Below are positions 658 to 23,240 of a stretch of 35,421 nt of DNA, in pieces. Within the stretch, counting starts at the first letter, position 1. Each line of letters starts with the position of its first letter. Position numbers and translations under genes: made by a program. Under the pieces are notes generated by a model that made no database searches, was not told the origin of the DNA, and saw nothing but the letters and a program-made list of their open reading frames with translations. Origin of the DNA: a virus (Duplodnaviria; Heunggongvirae; Uroviricota; Caudoviricetes); the IMG/VR virus record IMGVR_UViG_2751185971_000005, positions 1-35,421 of that record, one strand, 5' to 3'.

Positions 658-775
658 GTTTACTCCTATATTCTGTCATCTTCTTTAATGGACATCAGTA
701 GACAGAAAGGAGATTAAACAAACCGGTGAATGGGTGATAGCGGATAAAAATAAAATATTTTTTTGAGAAGATTAT

Positions 776-810
776 CCGCTTTGAAATACACAGTAGCGTA
801 TTCAAAGCGG
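776..810. promoter_or_regulatory. Perfect 10-bp inverted repeat (CCGCTTTGAA-N15-TTCAAAGCGG), candidate operator
   Basis: Read directly from sequence; lies in the AT-rich gap between the 293-aa ORF and alpA; no T-run follows on either strand, so not a typical terminator. Confidence 0.3.
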
Positions 811-854
811 AAATCGCGAAATTTACTTAAAACGTTTACGTAGGATTTTGCTTG

Positions 855-1736: not shown

Positions 1737-1878
1737 ACGCCACCCCGCGCCCCTAATTCTGACGGCTATGCCAGCCCGTAGGGGTGTACGGGTTTTCGGG
1801 GATCAGCCTAGACATAGCCTATTCTTTGTTCGTCTACATAAGTCTACTACCATTGCTTAACACGGTCTATTCATACAG

Positions 1879-3093
1879 TTAAGCTCGTTTCCCAAACGAA
1901 CCATGAACAACGTTCTCCTCCTTCTCCAGCGCATCCATATAGTCGGCATACCATTGAAGCATCTCCCGCCTTCCATCCAGATATTGCGCATGGTTGTATG
2001 TGCCACGAATTGAGTTCTTATCAACGTGAGCGAGCTGCGTTTCTATCCACGCGGTGTTATAGCCCTGCTCATGCAAAATCGTGCTCATAGTGTGCCGGAA
2101 CCCATGACCAGTTACACGTCCAGCGTAGCCAATGCGCTTAAACACTTGGTTTATGCTGGCCTCACTCATTGTTTTCCTTGGATCATTGCGCCCGGGAAAC
2201 ATAAGAGGGTAATTGCCTGTTATTTCTCTAATCTTCCCAATAAGCGAAAGAGCCTGATCAGACAATGGCACAATATGAGGCCGCCGCATTTTCATACGTG
2301 AAGCGGGTATCTCCCAGATAGCCTTGTTGAAATCAATTTCATCCCATAATGCGCCACGTAGTTCGCCAGTCCGCAAGCCGATGATAATCAGTAGACGAGC
2401 CGCCATAACAACCAATGCGCTTCCTGAGTAACTGGACAATGCCTTGAAAAAATCAGGTAATTCTTTAGCTGTAAGGAAAGGGTAATGATTAGATTCATGG
2501 CCTTGCATCGCGCTAGTAAGGTCTGGTGCAGGGTTATACTCTGCGCGACCAGTGACTATTGCATAGCGGAAAACTTCCCCGCACCGCTGCCTCACTTTTT
2601 TGGCTTTTTCTGTAGCACCGCGCCCCTCGATGCGCCGCAGCACATTCAGAAGTTCAAGTGGTTTGATTTCGGCGATTGGTTTTTTGCCAATGTAAGGGAA
2701 CACATCTTTGTTGAAGGCTTCGAGGATGTCTGAAGCATAACCAGCAGACCATTTTTTTAATTTGCTGCTGTGCCACTCAAGGGCAATATCTTTGAAGGTG
2801 TTGTTTAACTGCGTTTCCCGGGCAATCTTTTCCTCTCGTTTCGCTTCCATCGGATCGATACCACCAGCGATACCTCTTTTCGCATCTTCACGTTTTGCCC
2901 GAGCATCGGCTAGAGTAACCTCAGGATACACACCTAGTGCCAATAGCTTCTCTTTACCAGCTACACGATATTTAAGTCGCCAGTATTTACCTCCATTAGG
3001 TTTTACCAAGAGATACAAACCGCCACCATCGGCCAGCTTGTAAGCCTTCTCTTTTGGCTTGGCTGTGTCTATTTGACGGGCATTGAGTTTCAC
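1879..3093 (-). CDS. int: Tyrosine site-specific integrase, P4 type
   Basis: 404 aa; N-terminus MKLNARQIDTAKPKEKAYKLADGGGLYLLVKPNGGKYWRLKYR and C-terminal GHGFRHT...LAH...Y catalytic region are characteristic of P4-type integrases; it lies just downstream of a tRNA 3' fragment. Confidence 0.92.
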   Translation of the reverse strand: MKLNARQIDTAKPKEKAYKLADGGGLYLLVKPNGGKYWRLKYRVAGKEKLLALGVYPEVTLADARAKREDAKRGIAGGIDPMEAKREEKIARETQLNNTFKDIALEWHSSKLKKWSAGYASDILEAFNKDVFPYIGKKPIAEIKPLELLNVLRRIEGRGATEKAKKVRQRCGEVFRYAIVTGRAEYNPAPDLTSAMQGHESNHYPFLTAKELPDFFKALSSYSGSALVVMAARLLIIIGLRTGELRGALWDEIDFNKAIWEIPASRMKMRRPHIVPLSDQALSLIGKIREITGNYPLMFPGRNDPRKTMSEASINQVFKRIGYAGRVTGHGFRHTMSTILHEQGYNTAWIETQLAHVDKNSIRGTYNHAQYLDGRREMLQWYADYMDALEKEENVVHGSFGKRA

Positions 3094-3165
3094 TTGGGGG
3101 TACCTCCACTAAACCGAACAGCAAATACCCCCATAAGTACCCCCATCTGACCGTAGATTTTGAGG

Positions 3166-3239
3166 GACTTTAGTAGGCGTCAAAAGACGAACGGGGCTTT
3201 AATACGCGGATTATAAGGGGTTTTGAAAGACTTTAGTAG
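3166..3239. repeat. Two 11-bp direct repeats GACTTTAGTAG (3166-3176 and 3229-3239) between int and the att core
   Basis: Seen in sequence; position is appropriate for integrase arm-type binding sites. Confidence 0.3.
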
Positions 3240-3258
3240 ACTTGGGGAGATGTTTGAA

Positions 3259-9045: not shown

Positions 9046-9445
9046 TTATTCCATTAATTAAATCCGCACTGGATAGAAGGTACTACCTCTCACAGAGTAG
9101 CAAAGTTCAACTGGCTATGCGGGATTAATCGGAATGCATGGTGGAATGAGTGCCGATACAAATCATCCTATATTCTAAGGAGTTTTAAGTTACTCAGCCT
9201 GCCAATTACTGGGGCATTTAATTTGTATGATCTGTATCAAAGCTGGGATATAAGTTAAGTGAAGTATATTAGGCACGAATTACCAGCGTCTGCTCTTGGC
9301 ACATAGCAGACCAGAGACACTGGCGTAAAGCCATGGAGGATCGGTGGGAGGAGGTAAAAATCCTCTCATGCAAAAAATACGCAAAATCGATAACAGTTGG
9401 AAATCATTCAATACTCGCACTATCGGAAGTTCACCAGCCAGTCGT

Positions 9446-9480
9446 AGCACGTTCTTGCATACGACGTGGCTACGGGTTTC
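9446..9480. repeat. Hairpin-forming repeat copy A (AGCACG-TTCTTGCATACGACGTG-GCTACGG-GTTTC)
   Basis: About 35-bp imperfect direct repeat of 10467-10502; internal palindrome CGTAGCACG / CGTGGCTACG; about 190 bp upstream of the GIY-YIG start. Confidence 0.6.
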
Positions 9481-9570
9481 GAGACCGACCCGATCATCAA
9501 ACGAAACATAAAATTAGCTCACATTATGAGGAAATGTATCTTTTTGCGCTATGTAAATTCAAAGGGTTAG

Positions 9571-10440
<870 letters not shown>

Positions 10441-10466
10441 GTCTTTAAGTGATAAGCATAAACCGC

Positions 10467-10502
10467 AGCACGATCTTCTTGCATACGACGTGCTACGGTT
10501 TC
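10467..10502. repeat. Hairpin-forming repeat copy B (AGCACG-ATC-TTCTTGCATACGACGTG-CTACGG-TTTC); possible bidirectional terminator
   Basis: Direct repeat of 9446-9480; lies in the 60-bp gap between the convergent GIY-YIG and invertase genes and overlaps the invertase stop codon. Confidence 0.6.
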
Positions 10503-11055
10503 ATTTATCTCCGACCGGAAACTTCTTATACAGTGTCGATATACCAACATCATAGATGATCGCCACCTTCTGGCGAGGAACGCCTGATGCAATTAATCGC
10601 CCGGCCTGCGCCCATTGTTCTGGTGTAAGTTTGGGACGACGTCCACCAATTCGTCCCTGTGCGCGAGCAACTTCCAGTCCAGCTTTTGTTCGTTCAACAA
10701 TCAGTTCTCGTTCCATTTCAGCCAGGGCACCCATGACATGAAAAAAGAAACGGCCCATTGGGGTACTGGTATCAATACTGTCAGTCAGGCTTCGGAAATT
10801 CACGCCACGCTGGCGCAACTCTTCTATCAGCGTAACAAGATGCCGCATACTGCGCCCTAACCTGTCCAGCTTCCAGACAACCAGAGTGTCACCTGCCGAT
10901 AATGTCCTGAGCAGTTTTTTCAGTCCGGGCCTTTCGGACTTCGTACCGCTTATCTTGTCTTCAAAAATCAGTTCACATCCTACACAGTTCAACGCATTAC
11001 GTTGTAGATCGGTGTTCTGGTCATTTGTTGATACGCGTACATAGCCAATAAGCAT
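10501..11055 (-). CDS. Serine recombinase, DNA invertase (Gin/Hin/Pin/Cin family)
   Basis: N-terminus MLIGYVRVSTNDQNTDLQRNAL with the catalytic Ser, then resolvase core and C-terminal HTH; start at the ATG at 11055 with AGGGAG Shine-Dalgarno; adjacent to an invertible tail-fibre segment. Confidence 0.92.
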   Translation of the reverse strand: MLIGYVRVSTNDQNTDLQRNALNCVGCELIFEDKISGTKSERPGLKKLLRTLSAGDTLVVWKLDRLGRSMRHLVTLIEELRQRGVNFRSLTDSIDTSTPMGRFFFHVMGALAEMERELIVERTKAGLEVARAQGRIGGRRPKLTPEQWAQAGRLIASGVPRQKVAIIYDVGISTLYKKFPVGDK

Positions 11056-11081
11056 GGTGGATCTCCCTGACAAAAGCAGGA

Positions 11082-11576
11082 ATGATGCCATTTGCTCGTT
11101 ATTTCTGCATTTTCATAAACGTTGGTTTGGGAGAAGCGGCAAAACGGAATGTGGGCAACGGGGAAAACCAAATCCCTGATATGTCTTTCTGGACGGTTAC
11201 TGGTGGCAATGGAAATTTTGTGATTCGTCAACCTGACGGGCTAATCATTCAGATGGTTACTGTAAGTATAAGCGGTCCAGTGGCGATGAATGGAATGACT
11301 GATAATGCTTATGCCATTACAGGTTCTAATAAGTCTTATATTGCCACAGCCACATTGCCCTTTGTATTTCCTAATAAGGTGCTGGGCGTTATCCCTCTGG
11401 TATCAACAACAGCTTATGGTGGTGTATCCAGTAATATTACAGGTTCATACGCGACGGCGGTTTGTTCTTTTGCCGCTGTCAGGGGGAATAATACGATTGT
11501 GTTCAAAGTCGACAAACCACTGAATGCAGCCTTTCCTTCAGATACCAGCGTCTCAGCGTTAATCATTGGACGGTAA
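11082..11576 (+). CDS. Alternative tail-fibre C-terminal variable segment (Sv'-like), expressed only after inversion
   Basis: The reading frame runs through crossover site 1 and encodes NVGLGE there, matching NLGLGE at site 2 inside the expressed fibre gene; the ATG at 11082 is probably not a real start. Confidence 0.6.
   Translation: MMPFARYFCIFINVGLGEAAKRNVGNGENQIPDMSFWTVTGGNGNFVIRQPDGLIIQMVTVSISGPVAMNGMTDNAYAITGSNKSYIATATLPFVFPNKVLGVIPLVSTTAYGGVSSNITGSYATAVCSFAAVRGNNTIVFKVDKPLNAAFPSDTSVSALIIGR
11110..11135. promoter_or_regulatory. Invertase crossover site 1 (hix/gix-like 26-bp site TTTTCATAAACGTTGGTTTGGGAGAA)
   Basis: 26-bp imperfect palindrome 55 bp upstream of the invertase start; inverted repeat of the site at 13055-13080; close to the hixL consensus TTATCAAAAACCTTGGTTTTCAAGAA. 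Confidence 0.8.
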
Positions 11577-11578
11577 GA

Positions 11579-12022
11579 ATGAACTCAGTATTCTTTTCAC
11601 CCGGAAGTAAAAGTTTTTATCTGCAAGAATTGTTTCCAGAATATGAGGATGCGGGAACGCTTCCTGATGATGTTATTGAAATTACCAGAGAAACATATGA
11701 GCAATTTCTTGGGCTGCATCCAGAAGGGAAAGAAATTGGCGCTGACAGTTCAGGACGGCCAATATGGATTAATTCCCCGCCGCCTTCAAAAGAGGATGAG
11801 ATGCTGGCGGCTGAAATGAAAAAGATATCTTTGGTTTCAGAAGTCAATACCTACATCAATACCAATCAGTGGCCTGGCAAAGCTGCTATTGGTCGTCTGA
11901 AAGGTTACGAGCTGGAACAATATAATTTATGGCTGGATTATCTGGACGCACTGGAACTGGTTGATACCTCCAGTGCTCCAGATATTGAATGGCCTACGCC
12001 TCCGGTAGTTCAGGCCAGATGA
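11579..12022 (+). CDS. Tail fibre assembly protein (U'-like chaperone for the alternative fibre)
   Basis: 147 aa with the conserved Tfa C-terminal signature ([26 protein letters not shown]). Confidence 0.85.
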   Translation: MNSVFFSPGSKSFYLQELFPEYEDAGTLPDDVIEITRETYEQFLGLHPEGKEIGADSSGRPIWINSPPPSKEDEMLAAEMKKISLVSEVNTYINTNQWPGKAAIGRLKGYELEQYNLWLDYLDALELVDTSSAPDIEWPTPPVVQAR

Positions 12023-12599
12023 CATCCGGCGCGGTGCTGGTATCTGTTGCAGTCACCGCGTCAATGTAATCCAGCACAGCGTTAAGCCGGGTTGTTTCTG
12101 CCTGCGTCAGCTTCCGCCCGGCCTGCAATTTCAGCTGAATCAGACTAATGGAAGCCATAGCAGCATCAATCAGTGACTGGCGCCGTACTTCTGCCGCGTC
12201 TACTGCGGCGTTATGCTGTGCCTCAGTATCGGTCACCCATTTCTCACCATCCCATTTATCGTATGACGTTAACGGGGCGATAGTGGTTGTATTTTCAGGG
12301 TAATCACCCGGAACTGTGATTTCTTTTGATTCTCCTGTTTCGGTGCTATAGACGATTTCACCGCGATGGTCTGGCACATATTCCCATGAGTTAAAATCTG
12401 CAGAACGGCAAATTGCATAACCAGCTTTATATGAGCCAGGAGCATCTAAACAGGAACATGCCGGGATACCGACACCCACAGCAAGATATTCAGTTGATGT
12501 GGAAATATATTCCCGTGTTTCACCATCATAATTATAAACGGTAATGTCTCCGGCCTTTGTGGCGATGAGTTCATTATTTAATACAGCTTTACTTATCAT
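11994..12599 (-). CDS. Tail fibre assembly protein (U-like chaperone for the currently expressed fibre)
   Basis: 201 aa; C-terminal [28 protein letters not shown] Tfa signature; immediately downstream of the fibre gene. Confidence 0.85.
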
Positions 12600-13357
12600 G
12601 CAGCCCTCACAATATAATTAAAGGCGATGTTACGGGAGCGGGTTTCAGATGCTGTGCGAACTGAGCGAGATGCGTCGAATGTCCAGTTATAAGCGCCATA
12701 ACCCTCAATAATTTCGGCTTCCTTTAGACCTGTAGATAATACTTGCCCATGTTGACTAAATGGCCCTGAACTAAGTACGTCTCTAAAAAGCTGGGTACGC
12801 CCAAAAGAACCAACAATATTCTGAATTGCATCATTCTGTGCAGATAATAAGTTACGACCAGAGTCAATCCCGCGCCCATCATCCCAGCCACGAATAAATT
12901 CACCGCGTAAATCTGGTAATTTTAATGTTGGGTAAGCCTTTGCCAGATTTGGGTACTTTTCAGAAGAAAATACTGCTCCGTTACATTTTAGCCACCCCGT
13001 TGGCGGAGTGGCTGAAGGCCACGGAACAGGCACACCAACCGGTAATGCAGAGCCTTCTCCCAAACCAAGGTTTTCGAGAGCTGTTTTCACGGTGCCATCC
13101 GATTTGATATCGCCAAACGGATTCTTGCGGCTTAACAGCAGCGCACGAAGCGCGGTAAGCAGCTGGTCGTGCCTCCCCTTCTCCAGGCTGGCACCGGATG
13201 CCTCCACCACGCCACAAAGCTCTTCCTGCAACATGTCAAAGTAGTCATCATCCAGATCGGTGGCAGGCGTGCCGGTCTGGGGGTTACCACGGGTAAAACC
13301 GTTCTTACCCGCGCCGAACTTATCCTTCTGCGCGGTTTTCGTGTCTATACGATGCAT
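12596..13357 (-). CDS. Tail fibre protein (short constant N-terminal part plus variable C-terminal part in current orientation)
   Basis: 253 aa; crossover site 2 lies inside the gene at the ENLGLGE junction; followed by the Tfa gene; Mu S / e14 Stf-like. Confidence 0.85.
13055..13080. promoter_or_regulatory. Invertase crossover site 2 (hix-like TTCTCCCAAACCAAGGTTTTCGAGAG)
   Basis: Central 13 bp AAACCAAGGTTTT identical to the hixL centre; inverted relative to site 1. Confidence 0.8.
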
Positions 13358-13360
13358 GGA

Positions 13361-13945
13361 TTACTCCGGATATTTAAAAATTACGTAGGTATGCGACGGG
13401 CAGAGTTTGTTAAGCACACATTCGACAACGGTGTCCCCCCAGATACGCAGTGCGGAATCGCAGGGGTCGCCACATGTCATCCAGGTGGTGTTGGTGGCGG
13501 CTGGCATGTTGACCTGCCAGTAATACCGCCATTCCGGCGCATTCACCGCGTCAGTACAGACCGATGAGCAGGTGAACGTGCTTTTGTCGTATCGCGTGAT
13601 GGTGGCGTCTGGTCTGCCCAGGGCAGCAAGCTGTGCAAGGTAAAAATCCTCATTGATGCCGCCCGCCAGGTTAACCTTCGCATCCAGTCGTTGCTGACGC
13701 TGGCGAAGGGTCTGTGTCCCTGCGGGAATACATTCATCCGGCAGGCCGCACAGACGCTCCCAGCGATTTATCAGTTCGGTGGTGGTGCGCGGATCCAGCT
13801 CCCGCATCAGGGCATCCGCACGCTGATGAACGCGAGTTAATGACGGTGCCGCACCGGCAATCGCCGGATCGCTGGCTGACCACGCCGGACCGGGGGGCAA
13901 CAGTGCCGACAACAGATGGATGTAATCATCGTTTGTCACGTCCAT
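13361..13945 (-). CDS. Mu gp48-like tail/baseplate protein (YmfQ/DUF2313-like)
   Basis: 194 aa; position between baseplate J and the tail fibre matches the Mu and e14 gene order. Confidence 0.75.
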
Positions 13946-14994
13946 GAAATCGTCCCCAGTACCGCCAGTTCATTTTTTGCAATGGAGATATTGTCCGCCG
14001 GTGCAAGCAACTGATGGCTGTATTCCCCGTTCGCACCGGAAATCGCCTCACTGATACGCGACACCTTCAGTTCTCCCTGCGGATAACCATCACGCAGCAG
14101 GAACGAACGCAACTCCGCGGTGATGGCAGTCCGTATTTCCGGTGTGTCCGGCGTCACGCGGATATGAAAATCCACTTTATGCGCCACCGGCCTGAATACA
14201 TACAAATCAGAGCCTGCCACCGGGGCCAGTGGCTCAATGTGTTGTCTTGCCGCCGTTTCCGTTGATTCTTCCGGAATGGGATTAATCAGGTCACTGCTGG
14301 CAATCATCACACCGACAGTCCCCGTTCCCATCCAGTGGCGGTATGTCCATGCACGGGTAATGCCTGGCACTTCTTTAGCCCAGACAACATAGTCCCCGTC
14401 AGCCCCGCCCTGAGGCGTCCAGTAATACCGCTCAATGACGCGGGCGCGCCACGTTTCCAGCTCTTCAGTATCAAATCCACCTGTCAGAGTGTCTGCCACG
14501 CCGGAAGACGGCAGACCATTCACCGGCGTGACCAGGATTAATGACGTACCGTCGTCAGCGTTACCGACCGCGCCTGCACTTGAGCAGGCGATCGGCACGC
14601 GCAGGACACCACCGGAGCTGGTTGCATCGGCAGTTGCCGTGTACTGAACCAGGTCATCGCGCTGAATAACACTCCCGGCGGTCACCTTCAGGCCATCGCT
14701 GACACCTTCCCAGCGCATATACCCGCTGGCAGCCGTGGCCCCCTTGCGCGGACACCGTTTCATCGCAGCATGTCGCGCCAGCCAGGACTCATCGCACAGG
14801 TCAGGCAGCATGTTCATTGCCAGATAATCGATGTAACCGTAAACCGTATGCAGCGCCGCCGCATACACCTTTGCCCGCACGTCTTCATCCATGCGCCGGA
14901 GCGTGTCGCTGACGTCCAGCCTGGCGAATAAATCGTTACGGAGCATACTGATATTTTCTGCCAGCGTCGGGCGCTGAAATTCACTGTCCGCCAT
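13936..14994 (-). CDS. Baseplate J-like protein (Mu gp47-like)
   Basis: 352 aa; size and position in the baseplate block (gp46 - J - gp48 - fibre). Confidence 0.8.
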
Positions 14995-15409
14995 GCGTTA
15001 TCGCACTCCACAGATCATCAAAAGAAATCATTACCGGTCCGTCACGACGCCAGAGAGTGATACTGTTACCCAGTTCATTAATCCCGGTGCGGCGGATATC
15101 CAGATCAATACGGGACACCACACCGTCATCAATCATCCATTGCAGGCATTCGCGGATATACCCCCTTACCGTCTGCACCAGCTGATTGGTCAGTTTGCCG
15201 CGCTGAAGCAGCCACAGCCGGGAGCCGTAACGGTCATTCTGTACCGCAGGCCAGGTATCCCCCCACCATCCCATCGGGACGTCGGCATTGTCATCAGGCT
15301 CCGCCCGCCGCCAGGTGAACAGGGAAATCACCACGGCGCGGGTCAGCGGATCCAGCGGTGCGCTGGCGCAGGTGCGTTTACCGTTCACCGTCAGCCACAG
15401 TTCCATCAT
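14981..15409 (-). CDS. Mu gp46-like baseplate protein
   Basis: 142 aa; conserved position between baseplate V and J. Confidence 0.75.
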   Translation of the reverse strand: MMELWLTVNGKRTCASAPLDPLTRAVVISLFTWRRAEPDDNADVPMGWWGDTWPAVQNDRYGSRLWLLQRGKLTNQLVQTVRGYIRECLQWMIDDGVVSRIDLDIRRTGINELGNSITLWRRDGPVMISFDDLWSAITHGGQ

Positions 15410-15954
15410 GCCTCCATCGCTTTATCCGGTTTGTCGGTGTTACTGCCCTGACCGTTCTCTCTGTGACGATGGCCGTTATAGGCAAGCCGCATCGCTGACA
15501 TGGTGGTGCCGCCGGAGTCGCACAGGTCTTTCACCTGTCCGGTCACTTCCAGGTCCATTTCAAAACGTGCTCTGGGCGCATTGCGAAACGTGATCGTTTT
15601 ACCTGCACCGTCCACCACGATCCCCTCCCGGGTCAGCGTCACAGACTGCCCCTGATCGTCATAGACAGCCACCTCCCCCGTCTGCAGCCCTTTCATGCGG
15701 TAGCGCCGGTCCGACACCGTAACAACCACCGCATGAGAACGGTCGCCATCCGGAAACAACACCACCGCTTCCGCACCGCTGTTTGCCCTTGCGGTAAAAC
15801 CGTAGGGTTCAAGATGTTCAACCCCGGCTTTGGGTTCACCGGCAATCAGGGACACATCCACGGTCTGACATTTCGTGGCGGCACTGATGCTTTTCACCAC
15901 TGCCCGCCCAATCAGGCCGAGAAGTTGTCGCTGCATGGCTTCAATCGTCCTCAT
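15406..15954 (-). CDS. Baseplate assembly protein V / spike (Mu gp45-like)
   Basis: 182 aa; synteny with the Mu baseplate block. Confidence 0.75.
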   Translation of the reverse strand: MRTIEAMQRQLLGLIGRAVVKSISAATKCQTVDVSLIAGEPKAGVEHLEPYGFTARANSGAEAVVLFPDGDRSHAVVVTVSDRRYRMKGLQTGEVAVYDDQGQSVTLTREGIVVDGAGKTITFRNAPRARFEMDLEVTGQVKDLCDSGGTTMSAMRLAYNGHRHRENGQGSNTDKPDKAMEA

Positions 15955-17033
15955 CAGAACGGGTCCTCCTGTACTCTGGCTTTTTTCTTTTTCCGCGCGC
16001 CGGGGTCTTCAGGTTCAGGCAGATAAGCATCAGGCGGGCCGACACGGATTTCCGTCAGGGTGCCGTTCTGGTCCTGAGTAAACGTGACTTCCGAAACAAG
16101 CAGTTCGGTATTGTCAAAACCACAGACCGGATCAAAGACAATCACCCGCTGGTTGGGTTGCCACAGCGTACCGTTACCCTGTCGCCAGCCCTGCACCACA
16201 TAGGTGGTTTCATCCGTCCGCGCCGCCCGTTGCCGGGCTTCAAAGTCAGCACGCGCAATACAGCCTGCCCCCGTAGCCTGCCCTGTCTGCCTGATATACA
16301 TCGGACGGTAACGGGCAATAAATGCGTCCTCTGTGCGGGCCCGCAGCGCGGTGGTGGTGGCCTCACCGAAATCATCGTCGTTTCCGGCACGCTGCCCCGC
16401 CACCTGGTAAACAGAAAACCGCTCCCGGATACTCTTCTCCGTATCGCAGGAAAGGATGTTTTCCCCAAGTACCAGCGCGGTATGTGCCCGCGTTGAGCCA
16501 ATACTACCAATCACCAGCCTGCCGTGCGGGTCGTCGTAAGCCAGCGCCTGCTGCTGACCGAGTATTTTGTTGATCACCTCAATCACCGTTTCACCGTGAT
16601 CAGGCTGGACATCAGGAATAACACCCGACGGCGCACCGCTGTTCACCACCTCAATGCCGAAAGGCGCAGCAAGCGCCTGCGCAATCTGTACCAGCGATCG
16701 TCCGTTAAACTGTGTCGGTTCGGCTGCACAGTCAATCAGGTCAGCGGTCAGACTACGTCCGGCAATACCGGTGCTGACCGAACGGGCATCGTAACGAACG
16801 GGCGTCGCCTCCACCCAGCCGGTGATCACCAGCTCATCACCAATCAGCACCTCCACTTTTGAACCGTTTTTAATGCGCGACTGAAGCGTGGTAATACCCT
16901 CATCTCCCGGCCACTGGCGGGTGATCTCCACACTGAAATCCCGCGCCAGTCGTTCAACACCGGCACCGATGCGCACCGATGTCCAGCCATTCCACTCCCG
17001 GCCATTTACCCGTAGCGTGACGTTATCGTTCAT
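15954..17033 (-). CDS. Mu gp44 (P)-like baseplate hub protein
   Basis: 359 aa; located between the DNA circularization (N-like) gene and baseplate V as in Mu. Confidence 0.75.
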   Translation of the reverse strand: MNDNVTLRVNGREWNGWTSVRIGAGVERLARDFSVEITRQWPGDEGITTLQSRIKNGSKVEVLIGDELVITGWVEATPVRYDARSVSTGIAGRSLTADLIDCAAEPTQFNGRSLVQIAQALAAPFGIEVVNSGAPSGVIPDVQPDHGETVIEVINKILGQQQALAYDDPHGRLVIGSIGSTRAHTALVLGENILSCDTEKSIRERFSVYQVAGQRAGNDDDFGEATTTALRARTEDAFIARYRPMYIRQTGQATGAGCIARADFEARQRAARTDETTYVVQGWRQGNGTLWQPNQRVIVFDPVCGFDNTELLVSEVTFTQDQNGTLTEIRVGPPDAYLPEPEDPGARKKKKARVQEDPF

Positions 17034-18358
17034 TACACTGGCACCTTCAGAGGGATCACCGGCACAAAGCCGGGATGCGTAATGGCATTACGCCGGATAA
17101 TGTCCGCGTCACACGCCGCGTTATCAAACCAGGTCGCCGCCAGCACCAGCGCGGGTAAAACCTCATCCGGCGTGCGCTGAATGATCCGTGCAGACTGTTC
17201 AAGGCGCGTGTTGATATCCGCATTCAGATCTGCTTTCACCCGGCGCAGCGCCAGAAACAGCGCATCACTGGTTGTTCGGGACAACTCCTTATCAATTGCC
17301 GTATTCAGTGTGTCGCGAATGTCAGTCAGTTCTTCCCACGTCGGCAGGTCAACCGTGCTTTTCACCGCCGGTGCATTGTTCAGTGCCGGATGCGTGACGG
17401 AAGGCCAGCCAGTGCTCTGCGCGGGTGTTGTTGCCTGCCCCACTGCGGCATTCTGCATCACCGCGGAAGTTGTTGGCGCAGGCAATCGGGTGACGGCATA
17501 CGCCGCTTCGCTGATTGCGGTCGTACGAAGGGTGCTGGCAACCACGTTACGCTGCTGCGTCGCCGTGGCGGTGGTTTTACTGTCCGTTTTCCAGACGCCG
17601 CGCGGTTGCAGATTGCTGCCGAGGCTGACACCGGAAAGCGTTTTGATCATGGTGACCAGGTCGCTGGCGTTACCATAAAGGCGTTTCCCGGTACGCCACA
17701 TTTTCTGCACCTGCTCAACGAAATTTTTGCCTGACGATGGCGGCGGCAGAAGTACCGAGATATCCCCCTGCAACAGCCTGGCGGCATCCGATACGGCAGA
17801 ATCCACCACTTTCATCGCATCAGAAACATACCCAAGCATTGTGCTGGCATTACCGACGACGTCGTTCTGCACAAAATCTGCCACGCCATCGATACTGAAA
17901 CCACTGAAGCTGTCACTGATGCAGTCATCCAGTGCAGAACAGGATGACATCAGCGTCTGCGCCGTCGCCGCACCTGAAGTGGGGTAAGAGAGTTCTCCCG
18001 CTTCGACAAACTTCAGGTCAAAGCGGACAATACGCCCTTCACTCTTCGATGTGCTGACCCGAACTTCCCCGTCAACACAGACTTTCAGCTCACCGTAAGT
18101 CGGATGGACAAGCGTGCCGGGACCGGGTTTATTCAGCGCGTCAATCAGGCGATCGCGCTGGTCAAAGCAGTCATCTCCCACCACATAAGCTGTGATGGAC
18201 GGGCGGAAAGTGATTTTCCCCAGGTCTTCGGTATAGGGTTTGTCGCGGTTCGGGTATTCGTGCGTTTCCACACGACGACCGGTTCCCGCACTTTCTTCTT
18301 CAACCTTAAACGGCACACCGCGAAATGACGCGTCCTGAAGTCTGTCTTTCCACGTCAT
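17033..18358 (-). CDS. DNA circularization protein N-like tail protein (Mu gp43-like)
   Basis: About 441 aa from the ATG at 18358 (GGAG Shine-Dalgarno); immediately downstream of the tape measure gene. Confidence 0.75.
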   Translation of the reverse strand: MTWKDRLQDASFRGVPFKVEEESAGTGRRVETHEYPNRDKPYTEDLGKITFRPSITAYVVGDDCFDQRDRLIDALNKPGPGTLVHPTYGELKVCVDGEVRVSTSKSEGRIVRFDLKFVEAGELSYPTSGAATAQTLMSSCSALDDCISDSFSGFSIDGVADFVQNDVVGNASTMLGYVSDAMKVVDSAVSDAARLLQGDISVLLPPPSSGKNFVEQVQKMWRTGKRLYGNASDLVTMIKTLSGVSLGSNLQPRGVWKTDSKTTATATQQRNVVASTLRTTAISEAAYAVTRLPAPTTSAVMQNAAVGQATTPAQSTGWPSVTHPALNNAPAVKSTVDLPTWEELTDIRDTLNTAIDKELSRTTSDALFLALRRVKADLNADINTRLEQSARIIQRTPDEVLPALVLAATWFDNAACDADIIRRNAITHPGFVPVIPLKVPV

Positions 18359-18373
18359 ATAAACTCCGTACAT

Positions 18374-18395
18374 AAAAAATCCCACCGGAGTGGGA
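18374..18395 (-). terminator. Hairpin plus T6 between tape measure and N-like gene (possible intra-operon attenuator)
   Basis: Minus-strand TCCCACTCCGGTGGGA followed by TTTTTT, read from sequence. Confidence 0.35.
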
Positions 18396-18418
18396 CTCAT
18401 TAACAGATTAATTTTTCA

Positions 18419-20254
18419 TTACCTGCCAAAGCGCGTATAGCCAACATCATGGCTGACATCAAAACCGCTGGATCGCGTTTCCATAACCCGCATACCCGGA
18501 GGCGAATTCACAAAAGAGACCTTGATCTCACCATCAACTTTTGGCGCAGAAGCTTTGTTAATCATGAAGGGATTCGGGCCTGTGGCATCGGAGGCGTTGT
18601 TTGACTGAGCCGGATCTACCGCCTGATAAGGTGTGTATCCCCGTGCCGGTATTCCCGTCCCATAAGCATCATAAGCACCCGCGCCCCACTGCGCAGAGTT
18701 AATGACATCGACCGTGTCACCGGAACTGTCGGTAAACCACTCAATAATTGGCTTCAGCTTGTCCCACATATCCTGAAACCACTTAACAACCGGTCCCCAG
18801 TTATTGATTACCATCCCCAGCGGCGACCAGGCAAAAACCTTCTTCAGAAGTTCCCAGCCAGCCTCAAAATAAGGACCAATGGTTTCCCAGAGCTTCTTGA
18901 AATAAGGTCCGACAACATCCCAGTTAGTGATAATTAATCCCGCAGCCAGGGCTATCGCCGTCGCAATCATTCCAATCGGCGTCATCGACATGATCCTGCT
19001 GACAATACTGATGGCACCGCCAACGCCCATCAATCCCAGTTTCAGAATCGCAAGACCGGCAGCAAGCCCGACGACGCCGCGAATAACCCGGGGATTTTCA
19101 TCCGCAAACTTCGTGAATTTTTCCCCTAACTCTCCCAGCCATTGCGTGATATTTTTGGCGTCACCAGAAAATGCGCCGCCAATAGCCGCAAGGCCGTTAG
19201 TTGCGGTCCCCGTCATTGCCTCCCACAGGTTGGACAGCGTACCAAGCTGGGCCTGAACACGTTTATTCAGGCTGGCCTGTTTATTCATCTTCTGCTGGAT
19301 CTGATCGTAACCATCCTTTCCTTTATCGATCAGAGCATTGACCACCTGAAGGGTTTCAGCATCATCACCAAATATTGCCTTAAGTACACCTGTTCGCTTA
19401 ACGTCGGTCAGTTTTCGCAGCTTTGCCAGTTGCCTGAACATGTTATCAAGACCGCCAAAACTTCCTTTGCCGTCAGTAAAATCGAGCTGTACCCCGAGTT
19501 TCTGGCGGGCCATAACTTTATTAACGTCCCTGATTTTCTTAACGCTTAATCCGGACTGGATAACTTTTCGCAGGGCATTACCTGCCGACTCCCCGTTCAT
19601 CCCCATCTGATCCATCATGACGCTGATGGGGGCAAGGCTCTGTGCAGCCTGAAGACCGTCCTTGTTCACCATCTTCAGAACAGAACTGGTTTTAGTGAAG
19701 AAGGACAACATGTTGGTATCGTCAACGCCCAGATAAAACGCCTTCTGGATAGTGTCGAACAGCCCCATCATGTCTTCTGACGCCGTTCCGGTAGCATCCT
19801 GCATCTTTGCAGCAAACTCAGCAGCCGCTTCCGGTGTTTTTTTCAGTTGTACCGCAAGATAAGCTGTCGCTTTACCCACACCACCCAGAATGTTTTCTGC
19901 CGGGATCCCCTGACGCACCAGCATCTGCATCATGTTCTGGAAATCAGCCGTTGTACCGGGTAGCTGGTTACCCAGGCCAATAGCCAGTTTATTGATGTCC
20001 TGAAAGCTCTTTCCAACCTCGCCGTTCGCATCCATCATGGCGACTTTCAGCCCGGTGGCGGCGTTTTCCTGATCGGCATAAGATTTCAGGGAAAGCGTCA
20101 GACCCGCTGCCAGTCCGCCACCAAGCGCCAGCCCACCCTGTGACGCTTCTTCCGCCTGGCGTTTAAATCCCCGGATTTTCTTTTGCATTTTCGACAGCGC
20201 GGGAGAAAGCCTGTCGACACCGGTGATCAACGCCTTAAGCTCAAATTCAGCCAT
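18419..20254 (-). CDS. Tail tape measure protein
   Basis: 611 aa, Gly/Ala-rich with hydrophobic central segments; preceded by a frameshifted chaperone pair. Confidence 0.9.
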   Translation of the reverse strand: MAEFELKALITGVDRLSPALSKMQKKIRGFKRQAEEASQGGLALGGGLAAGLTLSLKSYADQENAATGLKVAMMDANGEVGKSFQDINKLAIGLGNQLPGTTADFQNMMQMLVRQGIPAENILGGVGKATAYLAVQLKKTPEAAAEFAAKMQDATGTASEDMMGLFDTIQKAFYLGVDDTNMLSFFTKTSSVLKMVNKDGLQAAQSLAPISVMMDQMGMNGESAGNALRKVIQSGLSVKKIRDVNKVMARQKLGVQLDFTDGKGSFGGLDNMFRQLAKLRKLTDVKRTGVLKAIFGDDAETLQVVNALIDKGKDGYDQIQQKMNKQASLNKRVQAQLGTLSNLWEAMTGTATNGLAAIGGAFSGDAKNITQWLGELGEKFTKFADENPRVIRGVVGLAAGLAILKLGLMGVGGAISIVSRIMSMTPIGMIATAIALAAGLIITNWDVVGPYFKKLWETIGPYFEAGWELLKKVFAWSPLGMVINNWGPVVKWFQDMWDKLKPIIEWFTDSSGDTVDVINSAQWGAGAYDAYGTGIPARGYTPYQAVDPAQSNNASDATGPNPFMINKASAPKVDGEIKVSFVNSPPGMRVMETRSSGFDVSHDVGYTRFGR

Positions 20255-20414
20255 GTGTGCGTTTCTCCTGCTCTATCCTGTTTGCCTGACTGACCAGTAA
20301 GGGAATTTCACTGATCGGCATATTCAGCAATTCGAAAGGATTAATGCGCCAGTAGCTGGCGCAGTCAAAGAAGCGATCAGTGAGGTATTCAGCCGTCAGG
20401 CCTGGAGGAAAAAA
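20247..20414 (-). CDS. Frameshift extension of the tail assembly chaperone (-1 frame; GT-like product)
   Basis: The -1 frame ORF overlaps the 3' end of the 89-aa chaperone; slippery heptamer T TTT TTC sits at plus-strand 20408-20414; extension ends at the tape measure start. Confidence 0.65.
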   Translation of the reverse strand, partial: FFPPGLTAEYLTDRFFDCASYWRINPFELLNMPISEIPLLVSQANRIEQEKRTHG

Positions 20415-20665
20415 CCAGCCACAAGCCACGCCGCTGCATTCAGGTCTGCCGGAGACATCTGGTCGACAGAGCTTTGCGGCACTTTCGCCAGCCGCACAAT
20501 GTATTTCGACACCACATGCGCCAGAAGTCTGACTGACTCATCCTGATTCATCTGGTAGGGATACCCAAGCTCGCGGACATCCTTCCCGGTGGGCTCATCA
20601 AACTCCAGTACGGAGAGTGTCTCGCCATGAGCAGTAATCGGTTTCTTTAACTCAAGCTCTTTCAT
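20396..20665 (-). CDS. Tail assembly chaperone (G-like; Mu gp41-like)
   Basis: 89 aa between tail tube and tape measure; ends just after the slippery heptamer. Confidence 0.75.
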   Translation of the reverse strand: MKELELKKPITAHGETLSVLEFDEPTGKDVRELGYPYQMNQDESVRLLAHVVSKYIVRLAKVPQSSVDQMSPADLNAAAWLVAGFFLQA

Positions 20666-21021
20666 TACTGGTAATCCCCTTCTTCACCGTGGAACTCAAG
20701 ATCAACCGTGCCTTCTTCGGCATTATGGTTCGCTTCGCCGTGCAGCCATGCAGACGACAGTACATAGACCTGACCGTTCGCCAGCTCGGCAGTGATTGTC
20801 ATCTCATCAGACGAGGTGATTTTGCTCACCGGAAAATTCTTCGGCACCTTGAAGGTCCCTTTGACATAAGGCGCACGGTGAGTTTCCTTGCGGTCCACTG
20901 AACCGTCCAGGCCGATGATGTCATCATTGACCGTCCTGTTCATGGGCACCTCAATGCCGCCGGTCAGCGATAGCTGCTGACCGTCAATTTTGAAATAACA
21001 GGTTCCCCCGATACGGGCCAT
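20665..21021 (-). CDS. Tail tube protein (Mu gp40/M-like)
   Basis: 118 aa; directly downstream of the sheath gene. Confidence 0.8.
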   Translation of the reverse strand: MARIGGTCYFKIDGQQLSLTGGIEVPMNRTVNDDIIGLDGSVDRKETHRAPYVKGTFKVPKNFPVSKITSSDEMTITAELANGQVYVLSSAWLHGEANHNAEEGTVDLEFHGEEGDYQ

Positions 21022-22517
21022 TATGCAGACTCCTCTGAATACTGAAGACGGAACTGGTTAACCACGGCAAAAACACGCAACTGGTTAACATAGTCAGGCG
21101 GGAACAGCGTGTTCAGGCGGTTCGGATCGCTGGCATCACGCTCCACAACCAGGTACTGCTTAAACAGTTCGTAGTTTTCCACGATCCCCGCACGCTCAAG
21201 CTGACGGTAGGTTGCCAGCAGTTCCCCTTTGATTACCGCCGGGGTGACAATCGCCTGACCGGGACCAAAGCGGGTACCGTCGCTGGCAAGCTTGTGACGC
21301 CCGTACTTACTGGTAATGACGGATTTCAGTTTGCGCAGTACATACGCACTGGTATGCAGCGTCTCGCTGTCGAGGTAGCTGTTATCCGCAACCCCGTAAG
21401 CGTTTTTCCTGTACGTGGTGACATCACGCTGAATGCGCAGCACCCCGCTTTCGACATACGCCGTTGCCACGCCATGAGACAGCAGGGTCTGCTGCTCGGT
21501 CATCGTGAACCGTTTCCCCTTCGGCGCAGGCAGCATACCCACCAGCTCACCGGTCTGCGTGGGACGTGCCGGATCGTTGCGGATAAACACCGCTGCGCGG
21601 GCGGTACGGCTTGCCGCCAGCTCGTCGGCAGGCGTCTGGGTCTCTTTTTCGTACCCCGCCAGGGTAATGTGCTGCTGGTTAAACTGGTCACCTGCGGTCA
21701 CCAGTTCTGACAGCGTGCCGATCTTTGCCGTATACACATGACCATACAGCTGACGCGCATAGCTCCAGCGACCGCTGGTATCGTTCATCTCGGTCACCAG
21801 TGTGTTAACGGAGGCCGTGTCGTTGAACGGCAGGCCGATATAATCAAACGGCTCATCCGCCATTGCAGCCACCGCGCCGGTGAGAACAGGAGAGCCCGTT
21901 CCGGCGGTCCCCGTCGCCACGGCAATCTGTACGCCCGCAGGCAGCACTTCGCCCCCACCAAAGCCGTAGTAATTGAGGCTGACAGGAATTTCATTCCCGC
22001 AAAGCCCCTTATGACGCGCGGTCAGTGTGACCACGCCAGCCGAAGATGAGGCCGTAAACGGCAGGGCCGGAACGGCATTGATGGCATCCTGGATACTGCT
22101 GGCAATCGTCGTGACGTTATCGCCGTTAGTCACCGGTGCCTGCACGCGGGTACGTCCCACATAAACATTCACCGTGCCGGTTTCGGTTGCCGCCCCGGTC
22201 ACCGTCAGCGTAACTGTTGCCGCCGCGCCCGTGGATTCAGGAACGGCAATTACATACAGTTCACCAAACGGGTCGGTCTGGCGATAAGCCTCGACCATAC
22301 GCGCCAGCTGACTTCCCGCACCACAAATCTGGCGTGCATAGTCTGCCGACGGCATCAGCAACAGACTGTTGGCAACAATCTCTGCACCGTTATTGGCATG
22401 ACCAATCAGCAGCGATGCTCCGCTGTCCTGTGCAGTATTCGCCGCCTGGTTATCCATTTCCGCATAAAACAGCGGAACCAGCGTATTCGACGGAATGGTG
22501 TTAAAGCTTATCGTCAT
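21021..22517 (-). CDS. Contractile tail sheath protein (Mu gp39/L-like)
   Basis: 498 aa; position upstream of tube and chaperone genes. Confidence 0.9.
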   Translation of the reverse strand: MTISFNTIPSNTLVPLFYAEMDNQAANTAQDSGASLLIGHANNGAEIVANSLLLMPSADYARQICGAGSQLARMVEAYRQTDPFGELYVIAVPESTGAAATVTLTVTGAATETGTVNVYVGRTRVQAPVTNGDNVTTIASSIQDAINAVPALPFTASSSAGVVTLTARHKGLCGNEIPVSLNYYGFGGGEVLPAGVQIAVATGTAGTGSPVLTGAVAAMADEPFDYIGLPFNDTASVNTLVTEMNDTSGRWSYARQLYGHVYTAKIGTLSELVTAGDQFNQQHITLAGYEKETQTPADELAASRTARAAVFIRNDPARPTQTGELVGMLPAPKGKRFTMTEQQTLLSHGVATAYVESGVLRIQRDVTTYRKNAYGVADNSYLDSETLHTSAYVLRKLKSVITSKYGRHKLASDGTRFGPGQAIVTPAVIKGELLATYRQLERAGIVENYELFKQYLVVERDASDPNRLNTLFPPDYVNQLRVFAVVNQFRLQYSEESA

Positions 22518-22671
22518 CGGTGTTCACCTTTTTATTCACGCGCCGGATATCACCCGCTGCTTCACGGCGCAGCCAGTAGTTGTTCTCGTCAACCTTTCGC
22601 CCTTCGGCGGGCAAAAGGTCACCGCGGGCAGGGTCAGGCACTGACCGCCCTTTAACAGGTTTCACAAACAT
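22501..22671 (-). CDS. Small conserved phage protein (56 aa, DUF2635-like) preceding the sheath gene
   Basis: ATG at 22671; encodes MFVKPVKGRSVPDPARGDLLPAEGRKVDENNYWLRREAAGDIRRVNKKVNTDDDKL; overlaps the sheath start by 17 nt; below the 60-aa cutoff of the ORF track. Confidence 0.5.
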   Translation of the reverse strand: MFVKPVKGRSVPDPARGDLLPAEGRKVDENNYWLRREAAGDIRRVNKKVNTDDDKL

Positions 22672-22679
22672 GAAGATTC

Positions 22680-23240
22680 TCAGGAAGGAAGGGTTATTTC
22701 GGTGTGATGTTCGATATCGCCGTCAGGCCCGTTACCGGGATCGAGATAATCAACATCAATCGCCAGCGTTCGCAGTTCATCCAGACTGTTCAGGTCATCC
22801 TGCTGGCGGGTATCGTCTTCAGTCAGCTCGCTGATGATCGAAAAATCGAACTGATAAATCAGCTCATGACGATTCAGATCCAGCAGCGTGCCGCCGTCAT
22901 AGTTAATCGGGTTACCGCACTCTTCCGGGTTCCAGCCCAGCAGGGCCTTAAAGAGCATCTGCCGGACATCGTCCACCACATCATACGAAGCAAACTGACC
23001 GCGCTCATCACGCCCGTTACTCAGTATGACAACCACGGAGAAGCCCTCTTTCAGCTCCTGCCAGTAGTCGGTCTGGCTTTTGTTTTCTCCCGGAGAATCA
23101 TCCCCCGGTACCACATACGCCGCCGGGAGTCTCAGCTTTCCGACCTCCGGCAGATTTTTGAACTGTGCCGCGCCTGCCACCCGGTTTTCAAAATACGGGC
23201 AGCGGGCACGCAGCGCAGCAATAACAGGCGTCAGTTTCAT
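22680..23240 (-). CDS. Virion morphogenesis / tail completion protein (Mu gp37-like)
   Basis: 186 aa; position between head-tail joining genes and the sheath. Confidence 0.65.
   Translation of the reverse strand: MKLTPVIAALRARCPYFENRVAGAAQFKNLPEVGKLRLPAAYVVPGDDSPGENKSQTDYWQELKEGFSVVVILSNGRDERGQFASYDVVDDVRQMLFKALLGWNPEECGNPINYDGGTLLDLNRHELIYQFDFSIISELTEDDTRQQDDLNSLDELRTLAIDVDYLDPGNGPDGDIEHHTEITLPS

Follow-up and report, generated by a model that had tools for sequence, protein, structure and literature searches.

Evidence for an e14-family Pin/P-segment inversion switch that gives an Escherichia coli prophage two alternative tail-fibre tips

The window analysed here, a single stretch of viral DNA of 35,421 nucleotides, very probably contains a Pin/P-segment inversion switch of an e14-family prophage residing in an E. 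coli chromosome, by which the tail fibre can be given either of two alternative tips. The switch is genuine and appears to work. Its invertase, an intact small serine recombinase, is encoded outside the segment, two inverted 26-bp crossover sites are located inside the fibre reading frame, and each alternative fibre C-terminus has its own assembly gene directly after it. The original prediction had read the locus as a host-range switch of the Mu G, P1 C and e14 P type, and every element of a Din-family switch was found. The Pin/P-segment switch itself has long been known, and the present system is an ordinary one; the P segment of e14, its invertase PinE and its sites pixL and pixR were reportedly described by Plasterk & van de Putte in 1985 and by Mehta et al. 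in 2004 (both cited in PMC4272514). The phage combines a Q antiterminator of the lambdoid kind with an HK97-type head and a contractile tail of the Mu type. A complete complement of head, tail, baseplate and lysis genes is present in the prophage, and the end of the window at 35421 falls within its regulatory region.

The crossover sites are identical to pixR and pixL

Two 26-bp sites had been predicted at 11110-11135 and 13055-13080, and both are present there, in inverted orientation and agreeing at 21 of 26 positions when compared as inverted copies. Site 1 (11110-11135, unstranded) reads TTTTCATAAACGTTGGTTTGGGAGAA, or TTCTCCCAAACCAACGTTTATGAAAA as its reverse complement, with a TT core at 11122-11123. 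Site 2 (13055-13080, unstranded) reads TTCTCCCAAACCAAGGTTTTCGAGAG, with an AA core at 13067-13068, and codes for ALENLGLGE on the minus strand. The sites had been called 'hix-like'; they are indeed of the Din type, but the label is too loose, since they are the e14 sites letter for letter. The reverse complement of site 1 is identical to pixR, and site 2 to pixL, at 26 of 26 positions in each case (Table 3 of PMC3241671), and the identical 26-mers also occur in K-12, pixR beside pinE and pixL in e14. The further claim that the 13-bp centre of the second site is identical to hixL was borne out, as AAACCAAGGTTTT is contained in hixL as tabulated in PMC3241671.

The two sites are imperfect palindromes that fit the dix consensus and share their central dinucleotide, as is characteristic of the Din family. 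The cores read TT and AA on the plus strand and are therefore identical in inverted orientation; strand exchange needs identical central dinucleotides. In a repeat search, the arms appeared as 20 nt with one mismatch (11117-11136 and 13054-13073), within which perfect identity is confined to 15 bp (11122-11136 and 13054-13068), corresponding to the 2-bp core, the inner half-site and one more base. The outer half-sites of pixL and pixR are mismatched at 5 of 12 positions. The predicted N(L/V)GLGE junction holds as well, the reading frame being kept through both sites as ALENLGLGE and FINVGLGE.

A multiple-inversion system, such as Min of p15B or a shufflon-like arrangement, was ruled out because the 35-kb window contains only two sites. 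With up to 3 mismatches allowed, the site 19-mer occurs exactly twice in the window, and two matches were obtained in 0 of 100 shuffles; the core motif AAACCAASGTTT is found nowhere in the window except at sites 1 and 2.

The invertase Pin and a candidate enhancer

The invertase gene pin (10501-11055, minus strand) encodes a Din-family serine DNA invertase of 184 aa, identified by Pfam, structure alignment and homology, and lies outside the invertible segment. Its product shows the features expected of the family: a small serine recombinase within the usual range of about 180-195 aa, with the nucleophilic serine near position 9-10 and a C-terminal helix-turn-helix. Pfam detects the Resolvase (1e-51) and HTH_7 domains, and residues 1-181 align with the Gin structures 3UJ3 and 4M6F (E 7e-93). 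Protein identity is 94.0% to PinE of K-12 and 76% to Gin of Mu. Judged from its translation, Pin is intact and carries no disabling change; it is full length, and the catalytic residues Y5, R7, S9, D64, R65 and R68 are all kept. RefSeq names the gene pinE in a genome that is 100% identical over 10400-13500 of the window. The invertase had been placed 55 bp outside site 1. The start supported by homology is the ATG at 11055 (MLIGYVRVS), from which the spacer is 54 bp; 55 bp is the distance from start to start.

The best match to Pin in the phage database (94%) comes from Escherichia phage vB_EcoM-689R6. This record was rejected as evidence from a virion fibre, as the entry is a predicted prophage that still includes flanking host genes (icd, mnmA, hflD) and lacks a full switch.

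Pin and Hin numbering presumably differ by one residue, an offset that we take from the Hin N-terminus; at this offset, Pin carries the residues typical of Fis/enhancer-activated invertases at K46, K47, R50, Q150, R153 and L154, each aligned in Gin with an identical residue or one of its class. The residues specific to such invertases in Hin are basic 47, 48 and 51, together with Q151, R154 and L155 (Fig. 8 legend, PMC3798978). The 5' end of pin also contains a candidate recombinational enhancer (10971-11034, unstranded), proposed from sequence pattern and position. Two G-N13-C 15-mers resembling the Fis core, at nt +22 and +71 of pin, cover 64 bp from end to end, in a region that is also under coding constraint. 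Centre to centre, the proximal 15-mer and site 1 are about 95 bp apart, and both 15-mers occupy equal positions in K-12 pinE and Mu gin. In the Din family the enhancer acts in cis and natively lies in the 5' part of the invertase gene. The Hin enhancer measures 65 bp and has a Fis site at either end, and a hix site is about 100 bp away (PMC3798978). The stretch in pin resembles this description and may be a Fis-dependent enhancer.

One fibre gene with two alternative C-termini

The gene order of the locus is baseplate J, YmfQ/Mu gp48, fibre, tfa, tfa', Sv' and invertase. The baseplate J gene (13936-14994, minus strand; Pfam Baseplate_J) and the YmfQ/Mu gp48 gene (13361-13945, minus strand; Pfam Phage_Mu_Gp48, 97% identical to K-12 YmfQ) lie upstream of the fibre gene in the same late operon. 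The constant N-terminal part of the fibre, of about 97 codons (13069-13357, minus strand), was assigned by homology and is outside the segment. It is 96% identical to residues 1-105 of K-12 StfP and also aligns with the N-terminal ends of tail-fibre PHROG profiles, which range from 338 to 1018 positions in length.

In the present orientation this part is continued by a variable C-terminus, Sv (12596-13066, minus strand), which, by Pfam, PHROG and homology, is a collar-domain receptor-binding part (Pfam Collar, 2.7e-15; PHROG 523 tail collar fibre, E 2.5e-72) and is 58% identical to K-12 StfE. Its partner is a TfaE-like tail-fibre assembly gene of 201 aa (11994-12599, minus strand; Pfam Caudo_TAP, 6e-32) that is 91% identical to K-12 TfaE. 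The ATG of this gene overlaps the fibre stop codon (ATGA), and at the 3' end the gene shares 29 bp with the convergent tfa gene. That second assembly gene (11579-12022, plus strand; 147 aa) is the partner of the silent C-terminus; it matches Pfam Caudo_TAP (5e-27) and PHROG 188 (tail fibre assembly) and is 54% identical to K-12 TfaP, chiefly in the C-terminal half.

The open reading frame next to pin (11082-11576, plus strand), taken from the ORF list, begins with a leader of 14 codons, MMPFARYFCIFINV, which spans site 1, and continues into the silent C-terminus Sv' (11124-11576). Sv' matches PHROG 12714 (E 1.5e-47) as well as tail-fibre PHROGs, and gives a weak Pfam match to Gp53-like_C, at 24.2 bits just below the cut-off. 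The locus thus contains the two fibre C-termini and the two oppositely oriented assembly genes that had been claimed, in a mirror arrangement with two convergent Caudo_TAP genes.

The fibre had also been called unusually short. At 253 aa it is indeed short relative to Mu S (504 aa), but it is typical for the e14 family, in which K-12 StfP has 209 aa; the fibre is short because its constant part is only about 97 aa long, and there is no truncation. This comparison was settled with K-12 StfP and with the P2-like prophage of E. coli C2. In a search for homologues of the 101-aa constant part, almost all of the matches listed were partial (101-177 aa) and cut by contig ends, and therefore no distribution of fibre lengths was drawn from them. 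The 253-aa form and the 247-aa form predicted for the opposite orientation are the two alternatives of a real fibre, which matters for correct annotation and little beyond. RefSeq lists the promoterless fibre C-terminus as a protein of its own, under "hypothetical protein" or "phage tail protein".

Both orientations occur among complete genomes

The invertible P segment was delimited by reverse alignment with E. coli ES5 and spans 1947 bp from core to core (11122-13068, unstranded). In ES5 this prophage occupies an identical chromosomal position but holds the segment in flipped form: window positions 11117-13073 align in reverse between forward flanks of 1955 and 12447 nt, and a construct in which the segment was flipped in silico aligns with ES5 over 3101 nt in a single piece, with 100.0% identity. 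ES5 again has both 26-mers, restored by the inversion; its constant fibre part is unchanged, and Sv' is joined to it; the predicted alternative fibre of 247 aa is exactly the annotated ES5 protein. Among 5,426 complete genomes, counting matches with at least 80% coverage, 34 have the orientation of the window and 15 have the flipped one. Since both orientations are found among complete genomes, the segment inverts in nature, with junctions inside the 15-bp common core. The inversion with conservative junctions that marks a Din-family switch is seen here by comparing genomes rather than within one culture, and by extension from these relatives the segment probably inverts in this particular genome too. 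The e14 P segment of K-12, flanked by the same repeats, is inverted by PinE, and both of its orientations coexist in cultures (PMC4272514, PMC12529663). The original prediction had stated beforehand that a single orientation together with an inactivated invertase would speak against it; public genomes of the same prophage instead hold both orientations, and Pin is intact.

Two other accounts of these orientations were weighed. The switch might be a frozen relic that no longer inverts at a meaningful rate, with the orientations being old alleles inherited separately. Orientation was indeed compared between genomes, and the four near-identical copies (at least 99.9%) are split three against one. 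However, no substitution separates ES5 from the window within the segment of 1.9 kb, and 4 do so across 12.4 kb of flanking sequence, and the flip is therefore very recent; moreover, Pin is undamaged, both sites are canonical, and K-12 flips detectably in ordinary cultures with identical sites and a 94%-identical PinE. We regard a frozen relic as highly improbable.

Alternatively, the inversion could proceed by RecA-dependent homologous recombination between the inverted repeats instead of by site-specific exchange. Inverted repeats are present, and the junction position can be resolved only to the common 15 bp. Yet perfect identity over 15 bp, or 20 bp with one mismatch, is below the length of efficient RecA substrates, and the locus has a dedicated invertase, encoded at a distance of 54 bp, with canonical sites to match. 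With a common repeat of only 15 bp, this route is scarcely credible and was rejected.

Site-specific inversion by Pin is the reading that we retain, and its course can be sketched by analogy with the family, from which the strand-exchange chemistry, the dependence on Fis and enhancer, and the consequence for host range are all drawn. Pin, dependent on Fis and enhancer, would bind as dimers to pixR and pixL and cut both sites at the central AA/TT dinucleotide. One pair of half-sites would then turn by 180 degrees before religation, so that the 1947 bp between the cores would be inverted. The fibre gene is read on the minus strand from the late operon (baseplate J, YmfQ, fibre), with its codons 1 to about 97 (13357-13069) outside the segment and the crossover in frame within the NLGLGE codons. 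In the present orientation, the constant part and the collar-domain C-terminus form the 253-aa fibre, followed by the TfaE-like chaperone; after inversion, the constant part is joined to the gp53-like C-terminus in a fibre of 247 aa, and the other chaperone gene comes next. A population of lysogens may thereby yield particles with two receptor specificities.

An allelic variant of the e14 switch of K-12

As in K-12 e14, jayE (baseplate J), ymfQ and the StfP-type constant N-terminus flank the segment on one side and pinE flanks it on the other, with the same gene order and with the invertase outside the segment. Nucleotide identity to K-12 is 95.9% over the 1671 nt that cover the constant fibre part, ymfQ and jayE, and 88.6% in the pin region, where the proteins are 94% identical. 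A defence gene is located just past pin in both, mcrA in K-12 and PD-T4-3 here. In contrast, only one of the two arms is shared. The TfaE arm is present, although its StfE-type C-terminus is only 58% identical, whereas the StfP/TfaP arm is different: BLASTP found no similarity between Sv' and the StfP C-terminus, and the accompanying chaperone and TfaP share only 54% identity. The locus is therefore an allelic cassette variant of the e14 switch and not the K-12 allele. The sites are 1945 bp apart from start to start, versus 1827 bp in K-12, and the expressed arm is the TfaE arm, which is the opposite of the MG1655 reference orientation. The prophage also differs from K-12 e14 in having complete morphogenesis genes and in its chromosomal position, beside a BCCT transporter gene rather than in icd.

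Inversion of the K-12 P segment is reported to give rise to StfE2, a chimeric protein encoded next to pin that keeps T2 from adsorbing (PMC12529663). This raises the alternative that the switch is chiefly a phage-defence device of the host. Inversion would then determine which receptor-binding domain is produced from the pin-proximal frame, as the leader joined to whichever C-terminus is nearest to pin, and this free domain, with the chaperone, would mask outer-membrane receptors against other phages. StfE2 of K-12 e14 has been proposed in that role (PMC12529663), and several features of the window are compatible with it. The pin-proximal frame has its own ATG and is open across site 1, the K-12 leader MPFACYFFIFINV is nearly the same as that of the window, the flipped ES5 form keeps the frame open at 169 aa, and PD-T4-3, a known defence gene, is next outward. 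On the other hand, an open leader is largely imposed by the pixR sequence, and the silent C-terminus is unrelated to the StfP C-terminus that forms StfE2. Unlike the defective K-12 e14, this prophage has full morphogenesis and lysis genes, and therefore the classical host-range role in the virion is fully available to it.

Expression signals are also against a defence device. A promoter and terminator scan of 10300-13500 gave match counts at the level of shuffled sequence, with no sensibly placed match for pin or the pin-proximal frame and no promoter identified for the fibre operon. Nor did the pin-proximal frame show a good ribosome-binding site, as an AGGA directly adjoins its first ATG and is separated from the second by 3 nt. 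We consider a switch that serves chiefly in host defence unlikely. There is likewise only an outside chance that the pin-proximal frame, with its leader, its pin-facing receptor-binding domain and the chaperone that follows, is expressed in the lysogen as a switchable receptor-masking or superinfection-exclusion factor. If it were, the frame and PD-T4-3 would make this end of the prophage a small defence island that is phase-variable and whose repertoire of decoys differs from that of K-12. Should the recent claim that pin-proximal e14 products block other phages prove correct, the domains of this allele would be a second pair, distinct from that of K-12, on which it could be tested.

Relation to Mu, Hin and P2-like cassettes

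The virion fibre switch that we favour has the same layout as the Mu G segment, in which the order is gp47 (baseplate J), gp48, S, U, U', Sv' and gin. Both have the invertase outside the segment and an in-frame crossover in a conserved NLGL motif (QNLGLQE in Mu), and the invertases are 76% identical. Mu differs in its gix core, which is GA versus AA here, in its half-sites, and in its longer constant part (about 170 aa, in an S protein of 504 aa), and its variable parts and chaperones have no detectable similarity to those of the window. The Salmonella Hin/hix system shares the recombinase subfamily and the 26-bp site architecture, including the 13-bp centre noted above. However, Hin is encoded within its own segment and flips a promoter, whereas the invertase of the window lies outside and inversion exchanges coding 3' ends.

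The same cassette is found in P2-like prophages and phages, for example in a prophage of E. coli C2, Escherichia phage 500465-1 and Klebsiella phage KP12. It takes in the two C-termini, their chaperones and the greater part of the invertase gene; nucleotide identity is 96.3% for E. coli C2 and about 87% for the phage records. Unlike in the window, the cassette is fused there to a P2 H-type constant part, giving a fibre of 507 aa. At one end homology breaks off at window position 13079, within the outer half-site of site 2, and at the other within pin, at 10594. The locus is thus a clear natural instance in which Din crossover sites serve as module boundaries, with the same invertase-cassette unit present in 253-aa fibres of the e14 type and 507-aa fibres of the P2 type.

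Inverted crossover sites identical to pixL and pixR

Two 26-bp inverted sites flank a tail-fibre segment where the original prediction had placed a Gin/Hin-type switch: site 1, the pin-proximal site, at 11110-11135 (TTTTCATAAACGTTGGTTTGGGAGAA) and site 2, inside the fibre gene, at 13055-13080 (TTCTCCCAAACCAAGGTTTTCGAGAG). With one of them inverted, the two match at 21 of 26 positions. A 15-bp stretch is shared perfectly, made up of the central dinucleotide plus the inner half-site and a single additional base; the outer half-sites differ. The repeat arms (11117-11136 and 13054-13073; 20 nt, one mismatch) are the strongest inverted repeat within the 5 kb that was scanned. On the + strand the central dinucleotides are TT (11122-11123) and AA (13067-13068) and are thus identical in inverted orientation. 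Site 2 falls within the fibre codons for ALENLGLGE and site 1 within the codons for FINVGLGE in the opposite ORF, so that recombination at the core preserves the reading frame.

The sites had been called hix-like, and the 13-bp centre of site 2 is indeed that of hixL. More exactly, they are pix sites themselves: site 2 is the published pixL (TTCTCCCAAACC AA GGTTTTCGAGAG) and the reverse complement of site 1 is pixR (TTCTCCCAAACC AA CGTTTATGAAAA; Table 3, PMC3241671), both without a mismatch, and both 26-mers are present in the K-12 sequence. The site 19-mer, with up to three mismatches allowed, occurs exactly twice in the 35.4-kb window (two matches arose in 0 of 100 shuffles), and the core motif AAACCAASGTTT is found there at sites 1 and 2 and nowhere else. 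There is therefore no third site, which rules out a multi-inversion system in the window. An 18-nt inverted repeat (11932-11949 and 12058-12075; 83%) straddles the 29-bp overlap of the convergent tfa genes. It was rejected as a further recombination site because it encodes a conserved C-terminal chaperone motif, LDYLDA or LDYIDA, on opposite strands.

A cassette variant of the e14 P-segment switch

The window is E. coli chromosome, and 10400-13500 is 100% identical to strain 1604D011, in which RefSeq names the genes pinE, tfaE and ymfQ. The late operon, on the minus strand, contains baseplate J (13936-14994), YmfQ/Mu gp48 (13361-13945), a fibre of 253 aa that has a Collar domain (12596-13357) and a Caudo_TAP assembly protein of 201 aa (11994-12599), whose start codon (ATG) and the fibre stop codon overlap. 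Opposite this operon, the plus strand carries a 147-aa Caudo_TAP gene (11579-12022) preceded by the pin-proximal ORF (11082-11576), which from 11124 on encodes a second fibre C-terminus (Sv'), with a weak Gp53-like_C match and matches to tail-fibre PHROGs. Both expected pairs, two alternative C-termini and two oppositely oriented assembly genes, are thus found between the sites. RefSeq treats the promoterless, pin-adjacent C-terminus (window 11082-11576; L001 20686-21177 and L002 12686-13195) as an independent CDS, whose name depends on the orientation: 'hypothetical protein' for one, 'phage tail protein' for the other. The full alternative fibre of strain ES5 is also labelled 'hypothetical protein'.

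The gene order is that of Mu gp47-gp48-S-U-U'-Sv'-gin. Relative to K-12 e14, Pin is 94.0% identical to PinE, YmfQ 97% identical, fibre residues 1-105 96% identical to StfP and the 201-aa chaperone 91% identical to TfaE. In contrast, identity to StfE is 58% for the expressed C-terminus, and the pin-facing arm from 11137 to about 11855 has no K-12 counterpart. Sv' gives no match to the C-terminus of StfP, and identity between its chaperone and TfaP is 54%. The start-to-start distance of the sites is 1945 bp, versus 1827 bp in K-12, and the segment stands the other way round from the MG1655 reference, with the TfaE arm expressed. The prophage also differs in having full head, tail and lysis gene sets with a Q antiterminator gene, and in not being inserted in icd. 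The pix sites, e14 genes and Mu gene order support the predicted switch of the Mu G-segment and e14 P-segment kind. We conclude that this is the Pin/pix P-segment switch, a system already known; the cassette variant seen here is common in sequenced E. coli and has been annotated before.

The fibre had been considered unusually short. This holds against Mu S (504 aa), but the two forms here (253 and 247 aa) are normal for the e14 family, in which K-12 StfP has 209 aa. It is the constant part that is short. The same cassette (window 10594-13079, L007 5001-7487; 96.3% nucleotide identity) is carried by a P2-like prophage of E. coli C2, where its fusion to a P2 H-type N-terminus yields a fibre of 507 aa. 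Homology between the two is lost within the outer half of site 2, immediately behind ...AAACCAAGGT, and at the other side it ends within pin, ~90 bp before the 3' end of this gene. With ~87% identity and an unchanged boundary, the cassette also occurs in P2-like phage records, and among 120 listed database proteins with this constant N-terminus the sequence beyond the NLGLGE junction takes at least 15 different forms. Thus, the crossover site doubles as the edge of a module that is exchanged horizontally, an idea already present in the literature (Sandmeier 1994, as cited in PMC3241671). Two large clusters of partial proteins, P0052 and P0055, end at NLGLGE or four residues past it (101 aa, 609 members; 105 aa, 550 members, named 'protein StfP, partial'), and most other listed matches are also partial. 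Evidently, draft assemblies break at or just past this site; mixed orientations, or a cassette repeated in several prophages, would be expected to cause this.

Both orientations occur in complete genomes

We built the flipped sequence in silico, with exchange at the core, and searched it against 5,426 complete E. coli genomes. E. coli ES5 gave a single unbroken match of 100.0% identity across the full 3101 nt. ES5 aligns forward with window 9182-11136 (100%) and 13054-25500 (99.97%) and in reverse with 11117-13073, the sole two mismatches being positions where the outer half-sites differ. The two strains share the prophage locus, next to the same BCCT transporter gene; ES5 regenerates both 26-mers, and the 247-aa fibre predicted for the flipped state is exactly its annotated protein. 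At ≥80% coverage, 34 complete genomes have the window orientation and 15 the flipped one, a comparison between genomes that bears out the anticipated two orientations. An inactivating mutation in the invertase, which would have spoken against the switch, was sought and none was seen. These results support inversion in this prophage type, a judgement that for this strain comes from the genomes of its relatives. In ordinary cultures, the K-12 allele, which has the same repeats, is present in both orientations side by side (PMC4272514). PinE and paralogous Pin proteins invert the K-12 segment, and of 562 E. coli genome sequences in a published survey about one third show P-segment inversions (PMC12529663).

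A relic that no longer inverts in this strain is unlikely, given 0 substitutions within the segment between the two orientations. RecA-mediated inversion between the repeats is likewise unlikely, with a perfect repeat of just 15 bp and a dedicated invertase adjoining the segment. The pin-proximal ORF might instead serve host defence as an expressed receptor mask, as claimed for StfE2 (PMC12529663); it has an ATG and a conserved leader and is open in both orientations. We regard this as improbable, since a scan for expression signals of this ORF found none, the prophage has complete structural and lysis gene sets, and the domain is unlike that of StfP.

Pin invertase and a candidate enhancer

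The invertase, Pin, is encoded at 10501-11055 on the minus strand (184 aa from MLIGYVRVS; Resolvase and HTH_7 domains), outside the segment as predicted, with a spacer to site 1 of 54 bp rather than 55 bp. Residues 1-181 align with Gin crystal structures (E 7e-93). Pin keeps the catalytic residues (Y5, R7, S9, D64, R65 and R68) and carries basic residues at 46, 47 and 50 together with Q150, R153 and L154, which are specific to Fis/enhancer-dependent invertases (PMC3798978). By its membership in the Din family, whose general scheme is given in the same paper, Pin dimers would bind the two pix sites, and a Fis-bound enhancer would assist invertasome assembly on supercoiled DNA. Both sites would then be cleaved at the central dinucleotide, and the ends religated after a subunit rotation of 180 degrees. 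As a result, the ~97-codon constant part carries one of two ends: the collar-type C-terminus, paired with the TfaE-like chaperone, or the gp53-like C-terminus, paired with the second chaperone.

Two G-N13-C 15-mers spanning 64 bp (10971-11034), ~95 bp from the centre of site 1 and at equal positions in pinE and gin, would fit the described 65-bp enhancer ~100 bp from a hix site (PMC3798978). This region is a candidate only; it is also coding sequence.

Prophage neighbourhood

Between pin and the chromosomal BCCT transporter gene, a plus-strand gene (9664-10440) matches the PADLOC anti-phage defence protein PD-T4-3 over its full length (E 2e-140); Pfam calls its product a LEM-3-like GIY-YIG nuclease. 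In K-12 e14, mcrA occupies this slot beside pinE; defence genes thus appear to be swapped at the pin-distal end of the prophage. The 0.5-kb intergenic stretch between the transporter and PD-T4-3 genes also holds a fragment annotated as capsid protein. Here ISCro1 (IS66-family) is present in near-identical relatives, ES5 (~9189) and 1604D011 (~9655), in opposite orientations, and not in the window; the two are independent recent insertions.

Window 1-3253 is absent at the matching place in 1604D011 and ES5 and therefore appears to be a separate integrative element. It contains a DUF6387 protein (855-1736), an int-alpA RNA (1751-1818, minus strand; Rfam RF02996, 46.7 bits) and, adjoining it, a 404-aa tyrosine integrase with an arm-binding domain (1879-3093, minus strand). 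At the other end, the window departs from 1604D011 beyond 30617, and an AraC-family regulator gene (33394-34197, minus strand) has the Q antiterminator gene (34391-35143) on one side and the prophage lysis genes on the other.
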